Shown here piece after piece: positions 59,430 to 63,861 of a stretch of DNA of 64,000 nt. Below the pieces are notes generated by a model. It saw only the letters and a program-made list of their open reading frames with translations. It was not told the DNA's origin and did not search any database. The stretch spans positions 25,817-89,816 of IMG/VR virus record IMGVR_UViG_3300033066_001722, one strand, 5' to 3'. Numbering within the stretch: position 1 is the stretch's first letter; the number at the start of each line of letters is the position of its first letter. Both the position numbers and the translations under genes were made by a program. The DNA is from a virus. Lineage: Duplodnaviria; Caudoviricetes.

Positions 59430-59446
59430 TGCAAAGATCGGGCCAA
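59430..59446 (-). promoter_or_regulatory. sigma54-type -24/-12 motif TTGGCCCGATCTTTGCA
   Basis: GG-N10-GC with TTGCA, intergenic, about 40 nt upstream of the ParB-like start. Confidence 0.7.
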
Positions 59447-59530
59447 CCTAGGATCAGGTTGCAAGCCTGATGTAATGCGCGACGTGTCTGTCGGATTTGG
59501 TTTGCATATACGATCGATGCAGGATGTGAT

Positions 59531-59547
59531 TGCAAAAGTCAGGCCAA
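59531..59547 (-). promoter_or_regulatory. sigma54-type -24/-12 motif TTGGCCTGACTTTTGCA
   Basis: Same spacing; tandem with 59430..59446. Confidence 0.7.
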
Positions 59548-59565
59548 CGCAGATATCAGGTAGGA

Positions 59566-59625
59566 GGGGTCTGTAGACCCCAAAGGCAGGTGTCTACAGA
59601 CCCCGGTTCGGACGCCCGAACCGGG
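59566..59625. repeat. nested inverted repeats
   Basis: GGGGTCTGTAGAC (59566-78) with GTCTACAGACCCC (59592-604), a perfect 13-bp IR. Palindrome 59566-81. 10-bp stem 59602-11/59616-25. Confidence 0.85.
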
Positions 59626-59675
59626 TCAGCCAAGCGGCATAGCGCGTCTGAAAAGCGGTGTAGCTCTCGGTACGC

Positions 59676-60140
59676 TCATCCTGCCGGGTTGTACCCTGGG
59701 CAGTTCTCGGTCTGGGCTGCCGGGGTCTCGCGGCGGCTGCACTGGACGCATTGACCGTTGGCGAAGCCGTGTGGTCTGAAGGCCGTGACCGGGCAGCCGG
59801 GGTGGCGGCAGTCTTTGCCTGGGCAGACGTGGTCCCAGTCTTTGTTCTTTGGGCCGGGCGTGTTGCTGTGGTTGGGCTGTGCGGCGCGGGGTCTGGAGAC
59901 CCCACCGGACTGGGTACGTCCGCGTGCTCCATGCTTGCCGCGGACTTCCGGTTTGGCGGCACGTAGCGCGCGATCTGGCGACCCTTGGCCATGGACGCAG
60001 GCGCAGTTCATGACCTTGCGGGGTCCTTGTGGGTGGCGGAGATCCAGACAAGCCACTGCACCCTTGCCCCAGCAGCCAGCGAGGCAGCGGTGAGTGCGGT
60101 TGACTGCCGTCTTCATGATCGTAATCGAGGGATCGTTCAT
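59676..60140 (-). CDS. Cys/His-rich hypothetical protein (start could be 60365)
   Basis: GAGG RBS before ATG 60140; several CxxC/CxC/CxxxxC groups. Confidence 0.45.
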   Translation of the reverse strand: MNDPSITIMKTAVNRTHRCLAGCWGKGAVACLDLRHPQGPRKVMNCACVHGQGSPDRALRAAKPEVRGKHGARGRTQSGGVSRPRAAQPNHSNTPGPKNKDWDHVCPGKDCRHPGCPVTAFRPHGFANGQCVQCSRRETPAAQTENCPGYNPAG

Positions 60141-60394
60141 AGGAGACCTCACTTGTGACGTGGTCGATGTTTGCTGACGTTGCCGCCAGCCAGGAGATTG
60201 CGTGACCCACGGCGGTATGCCGCGGTGGTCGTAGCCCAGCCACGGGAGACAACCGTGGCTGAACCTACTTCCATCCCGATGTGAGTGGATCACAAACGGA
60301 TCGAAGTGCACCGGATGTAGTAGTGCAACCGCGAGCACTGCGACATGGAAGCATGCGTAGGTCATAGGATGTGAGACGAAGAGGCTCGGACTGG

Positions 60395-61726: not shown

Positions 61727-62080
61727 TTAACCTCCGACGACTTCGATCGTCTCGGGCTCCTGCTCCGGGAGGAGCATGCTGTCTGTGACGTCCCAGACAA
61801 ACAACAGGGTCATCCGGTCGTAGGGACTGAAGGTCGCCTCACACGACCACTCACCAGGTACCAACCAACGCTCCAGCCAGTACTGGAGTCGGAACGCCTC
61901 GGGCAGGATGGCAGATGCGTCCTGCAGTCGCATCACGACGTGTGGACGCTCGAAGACACGTTCTTCGGGAGGTTTGCTGACACCGTCGCCAGAGTCGACG
62001 GTGTGGAACCCTTTGCGACGCAGACGCATCACAAGCTCGCGGACACCAGGGTCAAGGATCTTCGGGTCTAGCTCTTCCAT
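61727..62080 (-). CDS. hypothetical protein (LDPGVRELV..L...GFHTVDSGDG; TYW3-like N-terminal pattern)
   Basis: Motif resembles small phage proteins with D..I..LV..LN..G..T..SC.G. TGATG overlap. Confidence 0.6.
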   Translation of the reverse strand: MEELDPKILDPGVRELVMRLRRKGFHTVDSGDGVSKPPEERVFERPHVVMRLQDASAILPEAFRLQYWLERWLVPGEWSCEATFSPYDRMTLLFVWDVTDSMLLPEQEPETIEVVGG

Positions 62081-62724
62081 CAGCCACCTCTGTGAAGTTG
62101 TCGTGCACAGACGTTTCCGTCAAGGAAGGTTACGACCTCTCCGAAGGTCCACCCGATGGGGAGTCTGTCATAGGTCCGCTGGAGATGTGGAACGACTGTC
62201 TGTCCGTCAAGCCACTCCTCCCACTGCATCTCAGCGTGCTCTTCAAGCGTGAACCCACCATGCAGATCGAGGATGTCCTGTACCTTCTGAGCACCGTCAG
62301 GCGTCGACAGTTGGATACCACAGTCGAGAGAGGCGCGTGCCAGCGTCAGCAGAACCTTCGAACGAGGTGAAACCGAGGTCGAACCGTCACGTAGCCAGAT
62401 CGACCGCTGCTCAAGGGTCTGGACTTGAGAGATACAGACGTCTCGACCCTGCTTGACGAAGCCAACAGCGATGGAAGGATTCTGAGAGGGTCCAGTTCCG
62501 TTGCTCGGTGTGTGGATGACGACACCCGAGGGAGTATCCCACCAGACACGAGGGAACGACCGACCGTAACCACGGCGCTGGCCGTTCGCGACCAGATCAG
62601 GCTGGAACCACGCAGGCGAGCCCCAGTTCGACACCAGCAGCCCTCCAATCCAGCGGGCGAGCCCGTGTAAAGACTCCTCCTGGACCGGTCCCTGCTGTCG
62701 AACAGAAGTCTCTAGACGCCCCAT
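62080..62724 (-). CDS. hypothetical protein
   Basis: ORF in the overlap chain. Confidence 0.6.
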   Translation of the reverse strand: MGRLETSVRQQGPVQEESLHGLARWIGGLLVSNWGSPAWFQPDLVANGQRRGYGRSFPRVWWDTPSGVVIHTPSNGTGPSQNPSIAVGFVKQGRDVCISQVQTLEQRSIWLRDGSTSVSPRSKVLLTLARASLDCGIQLSTPDGAQKVQDILDLHGGFTLEEHAEMQWEEWLDGQTVVPHLQRTYDRLPIGWTFGEVVTFLDGNVCARQLHRGG

Positions 62725-63074
62725 TTGTAGTCCTCCTCACCGGTCCAACCAGGTGCGACCAATGTCTGTGGGTCCCCTTCATGCTCGAGCTGAGTGGCAA
62801 TCTCCTGCAACGTCAGCTCCTGACGTTTGATCCCACCCTTACGTCGGATACCGCTGCTGAAGATCCTCGAGTTAAGACGTTCGACCTTCTCGTCAGAAGT
62901 CTTCACCTCGAATTGGAGGAAGCTCACCGTCTCGTGCTCAAGTCGATAGGTGAGCGCTTTGATCGAGCCATGGAGTTGAAAGTGGAGTTTGTTGACAGCT
63001 TCTCCGGCAGAGTCCGCCTCAATGGCGGTCCACGGAGTCTGAACCGGCTTGATAGCTCGACATGTGTAGTTCAC
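62712..63074 (-). CDS. hypothetical protein
   Basis: GTG start at 63074 (GTGA overlap). Confidence 0.6.
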   Translation of the reverse strand: MNYTCRAIKPVQTPWTAIEADSAGEAVNKLHFQLHGSIKALTYRLEHETVSFLQFEVKTSDEKVERLNSRIFSSGIRRKGGIKRQELTLQEIATQLEHEGDPQTLVAPGWTGEEDYKWGV

Positions 63075-63235
63075 TTCGACTCTCCGTCGCAGGTTGGGCA
63101 GTAGACAGGTTGACCACTCCGACGACCCGTGCAGTGACCTCCCGCTGGGTCTGCCATCGGAGCGTCGACGATCCAACACCAGACGTCGTACTCCAGCCAG
63201 GACTTCAGACGATCCCACCAGGTCAGTTGGATCAT
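63071..63235 (-). CDS. small Trp/Cys-containing protein (54 aa, not in the ORF track)
   Basis: Manual translation MIQLTWWDRLKSWLEYDVWCWIV...YCPTCDGESK*. ATGA and GTGA overlaps at both ends. Confidence 0.6.
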   Translation of the reverse strand: MIQLTWWDRLKSWLEYDVWCWIVDAPMADPAGGHCTGRRSGQPVYCPTCDGESK

Positions 63236-63555
63236 CGGATGAGCTCGACGAGGTTGTCGTACTCGTTGGCAACAGCTTCGTATCCATCAGAGTGACCTCG
63301 CTCCCACGCCAGGCCCCACAACTTACCCTCTTTGGGGTGCGTTGTCGTCTGGTAGAGCTCTGCGAGCTCACGATGGAAGCGTTCCACGCTCTGCTGTTCT
63401 GCTTGTCGGTAGGATGCCATGGCGGTCTTCCACCTCTCCATATCCTCCGGACGATAACCGATCTTGTTCGGGATCGGACGTCGACCCGGATAGGGTGCCT
63501 TGTTCTCGTAGTCACCGTTCTTGATCCGGTCGTAGATCGTCTGTAGTTCAGACAT
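63232..63555 (-). CDS. hypothetical protein
   Basis: Start MSELQ at 63555. LAWERGHSDGYEAV pattern. Confidence 0.7.
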   Translation of the reverse strand: MSELQTIYDRIKNGDYENKAPYPGRRPIPNKIGYRPEDMERWKTAMASYRQAEQQSVERFHRELAELYQTTTHPKEGKLWGLAWERGHSDGYEAVANEYDNLVELIR

Positions 63556-63832
63556 ACTCCACCTCGATAAGTTTGTGTTGCAGTGCAAGACGCATGAGGC
63601 TGTGGGCAGCAAGAGTCGGGCTACCATCCGAACCGCGGATCTCTCGTTGAGCTGGGAGTCGATGCCGCCAGCAGTGATACTTCTTGTCTAGGTAGACGTA
63701 CCCAACTAGCTCTTCCGCCTGACCAGGACGTAGAGGTGCAAGCACCCTGTATCCTTTGATGTTCGGCAGACCTTCCACGGTCGCAGCGGGGTCAGGGTGT
63801 AGGTGGCAGGCGGGCAGGATAGGGATAGGCAT
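63548..63832 (-). CDS. hypothetical protein
   Basis: ORF directly downstream of a promoter motif. Confidence 0.55.
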   Translation of the reverse strand: MPIPILPACHLHPDPAATVEGLPNIKGYRVLAPLRPGQAEELVGYVYLDKKYHCWRHRLPAQREIRGSDGSPTLAAHSLMRLALQHKLIEVEYV

Positions 63833-63844
63833 GAGACTCTGTAG

Positions 63845-63861
63845 TGCAAAAACTAGACCAA
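63845..63861 (-). promoter_or_regulatory. sigma54-type -24/-12 motif TTGGTCTAGTTTTTGCA
   Basis: Starts immediately after the TAG of a small upstream ORF (63862..63945); exact GG-N10-GC spacing. Confidence 0.6.

Follow-up and report, generated by a model that had tools for sequence, protein, structure and literature searches.

Putative sigma-54-type promoters preceding small genes and a gene for a ParB-like protein in an uncultured phage whose head genes are of the T4 type

We analyzed four 17-nucleotide (nt) sites, M1 to M4, on the minus strand of a virus contig in IMG/VR (IMGVR_UViG_3300033066_001722). The stretch under analysis, called the window below, is the last 64 kb of this 89,816-base contig, and positions are given in window coordinates. 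On balance, the sequences point to a phage that uses the sigma-54 (RpoN) RNA polymerase of its host through these four sites, which would be promoters of the -24/-12 class. With the same moderate confidence, the four sites are proposed to head three transcription units, which comprise small, mostly functionally unassigned genes and a ParB-like gene. We regard the sigma-54 reading as the best one because the sites fit the sigma-54 consensus and are suitably placed, because the C by which they depart from this consensus is a catalogued variant, and because no other promoter types were found.

Sequence, placement and consensus fit of the four sites

The minus strand carries nearly all genes of the contig. 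The four sites lie in the final 4.5 kb, which is the upstream end of the contig in the direction of transcription. They share the consensus TTGG-Y-C-Y-R-N-N-Y-TTTGCA, in which TTGG and TTTGCA are invariant in all four, and each has the exact GG-N10-GC spacing. M1 (59430-59446) and M2 (59531-59547) form a tandem. M1 is the downstream member and ends 40 nt ahead of the ATG of the ParB-like gene; M2 is located 84 nt upstream of M1 and 18 nt past a double hairpin. M3 (61697-61713) is placed in a 48-nt gap between the genes for a 117-amino-acid and a 425-amino-acid protein. M4 (63845-63861) occupies a 29-nt gap and adjoins the stop codon of a short open reading frame (ORF) upstream. Coding sequence lies upstream of both M3 and M4. 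The distance from the end of the motif to the start codon is 12 nt for M4 and 24 nt for M3. At M3, a ribosome-binding site, GGAGG, starts 12 nt past the motif. An earlier ATG, 18 nt away from the motif, is too near this ribosome-binding site, and the second ATG (61672) is the likely start. The initial annotation of the window had reported the four sites on the minus strand with this spacing, in gaps and pointing into genes, and they were found exactly as described.

The number of sites was compared with that in 100 dinucleotide shuffles. When one mismatch to the degenerate motif was allowed, six sites were detected in the window (four of them exact), against 0.32 +/- 0.53 in the shuffles. With the looser pattern TGG-N8-TTGCW, 12 sites were detected against 2.5 +/- 1.5. 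No fifth copy of the motif was found in the whole contig. All four sites are intergenic and in sense to the genes that they precede. By a generous mask, the non-coding share of the contig is at most 10% (0.104 was used), and the probability that all four sites fall in gaps and in sense by chance is at most (0.104 x 0.5)^4, about 7e-6. M1, M2 and M3 are closely alike, and M1 and M2 additionally share ACCTGAT upstream. For M3 and M4, the likeness ends at the motif edges.

The sites were then scored at the 12 positions of the published sigma-54 consensus (TGGCACG-N4-TTGCW), which was established independently of them. Consensus counting, together with word counts in a promoter table, was used instead of a published weight matrix. 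M1 and M3, which match at 11 of the 12 positions, are the only sites of this score in the 89.8 kb; in the shuffles, 0.7 such sites were obtained on average and never more than 2. M2 matches at 10 positions. M4 matches at 8, with TGG and TTGCA intact; its score was counted by hand. The invariant bases of the four sites are those by which sigma-54 promoters are defined, and the 4-5 nt that vary correspond to the uninformative spacer. The strongly conserved sigma-54 positions that the sites match are TGG, TTGC, and the flanking T and A. The likeness to -24/-12 promoters that had been noticed from the sequence is therefore upheld: the strongly conserved positions match, and the geometry suits a promoter about 12 nt before a transcript start.

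In a table of 720 promoters, many entries of which are RegPrecise sites accepted rather than individually proven, TGGCAC occurs 236 times, TGGCCC 52 times, TGGCCT 19 times and TGGTCT 5 times (PMC12316311). The Desulfohalobium adh site in this table is identical to M1 at 15 of 17 positions, and the Desulfovibrio fliR site resembles M4.

Two weaker GG-N10-GC matches had also been pointed out, at 31725-31738 and 24537-24550. They score about 7/12 and about 6/12, again by hand count, and are absent from the list of sites with at least 10/12. They are therefore indistinguishable from chance. As a separate observation, the gap after the capsid gene (31596-31779) contains a terminator-like hairpin; its loop has another copy of TTGGTCTA, the first half of M4, but lacks the second half.

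When the C of the GC was set at -12, the predicted transcription starts were 59419 for M1, 59520 for M2, 61686 for M3 and 63834 for M4. These recalculated values are the same as those first proposed. The leaders predicted from these starts are 30 nt (M1), 14 nt (M3) and 2 nt (M4) long, and the predicted start of M3 is 2 nt ahead of GGAGG.

Other promoter classes were also looked for. No sigma-70-like promoter (TTGACA/TATAAT-like hexamers 16-18 nt apart) was found in 56000-64000, and none of at least 10/12 was found in the contig. TATAAT occurs once in the whole contig. There is no T4 late box (TATAAATA-like), and TAAATA and TATAAA are absent from both strands of the contig. Therefore, the 17-nt motif is the only recurrent intergenic signal visible.

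Three assignments of the motif itself were rejected. A -35 element is excluded because M4 leaves only 12 nt before the ATG, and M3 only 12 nt before the ribosome-binding site. A Bacteroidota-type promoter is ruled out by the spacing and by the wide use of ribosome-binding sites. The remaining candidate, a T4 MotA or late box, is not present.

The sigma-54 reading and its rivals

Sigma-54 promoters require RpoN and an AAA+ activator. If the four sites are of this class, the host core RNA polymerase with sigma-54 would dock on TGG at -24 and TTGC at -12, and a closed complex would be formed. The complex would be opened by an AAA+ activator, which could come from the host or be encoded by the phage in the missing part of its genome. 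Transcription would begin near the four calculated positions (63834, 61686, 59520 and 59419). From M4, a nearly leaderless mRNA for a train of six genes would be made, and the transcript from M3 would carry a ribosome-binding site in a leader of 14 nt. The tandem pair of M2 and M1 would restart transcription past the double hairpin and drive the ParB-like operon. We infer the RpoN binding, the need for an activator and the start sites from the sequence.

Several results weigh against the sigma-54 reading. At the sites, C replaces the consensus A in all four, which is the sole consistent deviation, and M4 reaches only 8/12. Since there are only four sites and three of them are very alike, a phage-specific promoter could by coincidence look like a sigma-54 one. 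As for the proteins, an RpoN domain is not encoded in the 89.8-kb contig. A bacterial enhancer-binding protein (bEBP) is also absent from it: neither a PF00158 or PF14532 domain nor a GAFTGA motif was detected. Thus, the remark in the initial annotation that no GAFTGA-type activator is seen in the window holds, and it holds for the rest of the contig as well. Upstream of M2, M3 and M4, there is no shared activator element and there are no 8-9-mers of note. An IHF-like site was not found upstream of the sites. Furthermore, the motif is not enriched in phage phiM9, nor in the 76 loci and one contig of a Syntrophobacteraceae metagenome-assembled genome that carry homologs of the 427-amino-acid protein behind M3, which are only 24-35% identical.

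The lack of RpoN and activator genes is not decisive because the contig is only 36% complete (CheckV). It has no terminal repeats, and about two thirds of the phage genome may be absent from it. The alternative idea that the phage uses an RpoN "mimic" gained no support.

The 76 loci and the Syntrophobacteraceae contig had been obtained by profile searches. Single-protein searches of viral contigs with the 427-amino-acid protein, the 356-amino-acid ParB-like protein and the capsid protein gave no relatives, and a scan with a capsid profile found none. An exact scan of viral contigs for the motif gave 35 single matches, which is the chance level. Closer homologs of the 427-amino-acid protein do exist, with 92% and 73% identity.

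The rival that survives best is a promoter of another class that merely resembles the sigma-54 consensus, read by a phage-encoded or modified transcription factor or by an unusual host sigma factor. We regard this as a possible but rather doubtful explanation. The reader could be a divergent sigma factor, a gp55-like late factor that also makes contact upstream, or an RNA polymerase modified by injected enzymes. This would agree with the failure to find an activator or enhancer, and with the confinement of the motif to this lineage and its absence from distant relatives. In addition, the contig has no recognisable sigma-70 or T4 late promoter. On the other hand, no sigma-70 region 2 domain is encoded in the contig. 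The bipartite shape, the 10-nt spacing from GG to GC and the identity of the invariant bases to the sigma-54 core would all have to be coincidence, and almost the same sites are listed among bacterial sigma-54 promoters.

The sites might instead be operators for a phage DNA-binding protein that represses or times the genes behind them. In both of their halves (TTKGCM, 11 bp apart), TT-GC- recurs with a period of 11 bp, and the halves could be tandem half-sites on one helix face, of the response-regulator type. The sites also overlap the position where a promoter or leader would be expected. We consider operators unlikely because every site points the same way as its genes and stands at promoter distance, constrained and short, from the start, and because no other promoter is visible on which such a protein could act. 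Moreover, another sequence nearby, a 16-bp palindrome present three times by the ParB-like gene, is the obvious candidate for an operator.

It is quite improbable that the sites cluster by chance or are repeats without a function, such as those left behind when an intergenic cassette was duplicated. The alikeness of M1 to M3 and the ACCTGAT common to M1 and M2 hint at duplication, but only about 0.3 sites are expected by chance, for M3 and M4 the similarity does not extend past the motif, and all four sites stand in sense just ahead of starts.

A more far-reaching form of the sigma-54 reading is speculative, and we give it very little weight. Here, the first gene trains would run only on enhancer-less sigma-54-type promoters fired by the phage's own activator (an unrecognised protein injected with the DNA, or one from the missing genome), or a ParB/KorB-like clamp at the palindromes would gate M2 and M1. 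If this were true, the phage would own the control of the sigma-54 polymerase without a classical bEBP.

Genes and structures behind the sites

All features in this section are on the minus strand. Behind M4, there are six tightly coupled small genes (61727-63832) for proteins of 94, 107, 54, 120, 214 and 117 amino acids, to which no function was assigned. The 94-amino-acid gene heads this train and has no ribosome-binding site. The 107-amino-acid gene (63232-63555) belongs to phrog_10980, which is also labelled "T4-like GC 782", and its homolog was found in small-gene clusters of the T4-like phages phiM9 and Cr30. The genes behind the sites had been called early. That label may be kept as a conjecture, drawn from the small-gene context and from the homolog in the phiM9 and Cr30 clusters.

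In Caulobacter phage Cr30 (KF301602.1), TGG-N8-TTGCW occurs 27 times, against 7 times for the reversed control. Most of these matches are not of the TGGC type, and this raw excess does not look like sigma-54 sites.

The gene behind M3 (60395-61672) encodes a conserved phage protein of 425 amino acids, or of 427 amino acids if the earlier ATG is used (60395-61678). No usable match to this protein was obtained in Pfam, NCBIfam or PDB sequences, or in a Foldseek search with its AlphaFold model. Members of the family are encoded in many contigs of uncultured phages that come from soil, groundwater and sediment, and about 60 residues are invariant over nine aligned members.

Downstream of this gene, a gene-free stretch of about 250 nt (60141-60394) has a strong predicted RNA structure (-99 kcal/mol; z -4.2 against shuffles). 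It has no Rfam match. By this folding prediction, the stretch may be a structured RNA. It is followed by a Cys-rich ORF of about 154 amino acids (59676-60140), which has its own ribosome-binding site.

Directly past the stop codon of the Cys-rich ORF, two adjacent hairpins with 7-bp and 16-bp stems are predicted (59566-59623; z -4.6). They look like a terminator, though a U-tract is lacking. The double hairpin followed by M2 and M1 is the usual layout of a terminator and then a promoter. The larger hairpin is built from two copies of the palindrome GGGGTCT-NN-AGACCCC.

This 16-bp palindrome is present three times within 340 bp, at 59566-59581, 59589-59604 and 59888-59903; the third copy lies in the Cys-rich ORF. 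The set is located directly upstream of the ParB-like gene, and elsewhere in the 89.8-kb contig no copy with at most one mismatch was found. Judged by sequence and position, the palindromes are candidates for parS or operator sites that a ParB/KorB-type protein would bind. The ParB-like protein could control M2 and M1 through them.

The ParB/Noc/KorB-like gene (58319-59389; 356 amino acids) is the first gene behind M2 and M1. Its product has an N-terminal ParB-type domain and a helix-turn-helix. Pfam gave no match for the single sequence, and HTH_ParB was matched by two homologs. A profile of eight homologs matches Myxococcus xanthus ParB (E 1.4e-4), and also Spo0J and Noc. In the predicted model (predicted local distance difference test, pLDDT, 73), the top 30 Foldseek matches are all ParB, Noc or KorB. 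Thus, the ParB label that this gene had been given is supported by both the homolog profile and the fold.

The phage and known systems

The contig encodes a portal protein (gp20), a major capsid protein (gp23) and a tail sheath protein, all of the T4 type. The capsid protein is at most 25% identical to every record of the phage collection, and no DNA match to cultured phages was found. The source is an uncultured, deep-branching myovirus with a T4-type head. A Myxococcota host had been suggested; no evidence was found for it. In an attempt at host prediction, no tRNAs were found in the contig. A Bacteroidota-type host is disfavoured because ribosome-binding sites are in wide use.

The use of sigma-54 had also been called unusual for phages, which is overstated. 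Pseudomonas aeruginosa phage YuA was reported to be sigma-54-dependent (Ceyssens et al. 2008, J Bacteriol 190:1429, as cited and re-mapped in PMC10914365). The strategy is an uncommon one for which a published precedent exists. YuA is a lytic phage with -24/-12-type promoters that are read by the host sigma-54 polymerase, and the promoter type is its likeness to the present sites. Reportedly, the 2008 study showed the dependence in an rpoN mutant, and the sites of YuA are said to lie in the structural and lysis region. In contrast to this reported placement, the present sites head small early-type genes and a ParB-like gene. Furthermore, the host of YuA is cultured, and the present sites are putative promoters predicted from sequence. 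The present phage also differs from YuA in its T4-type head, and no sequence relation between it and cultured phages was detected.

The sites resemble bacterial sigma-54 promoters, including the TGGCCC variants of Desulfovibrionales, in their core bases, in the 10 nt from GG to GC, in the T and A on the flanks, and in standing just ahead of a predicted transcript start. Classical sigma-54 promoters have activator sites 80-150 bp upstream and a known bEBP, whereas neither a shared upstream element nor a bEBP gene was found here. With T4, the phage has in common the types of portal, capsid and sheath, and a T4-like small gene in the M4 train. As in T4-type genomes, short putative promoters are packed directly before genes. 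However, none of the early (sigma-70), middle (MotA box) and late (gp55, TATAAATA) promoters of T4 fits the present sites.

If the sigma-54 reading is true, a block of early-type genes and a ParB-like regulator would depend on an ATP-driven activator. Infection would be coupled to the physiological state of the host or to a switch supplied by the phage. A deep-branching lineage with a T4-type head would then join the very few phages, such as YuA, with documented sigma-54 use. The case adds little alone because there are only four sites, no host and no relatives.

Other genes of the contig were also noted. A transporter of the MFS/POT family (55502-56728; 408 amino acids) matches Pfam PTR2 and MFS_1. 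Genome contigs yielded no close homolog of it, and the Atlas clusters nearest to it are scattered across many phyla.

The replication genes differ from those of T4. A 1265-amino-acid protein (contig coordinates 14450-18247) is a fusion of an N-terminal uracil-DNA glycosylase domain with a family A DNA polymerase. Near it, a class II ribonucleotide reductase with a TSCPD domain, ThyX and an SbcCD-like pair are encoded. The replication module is not T4-like, despite the T4-type head genes.

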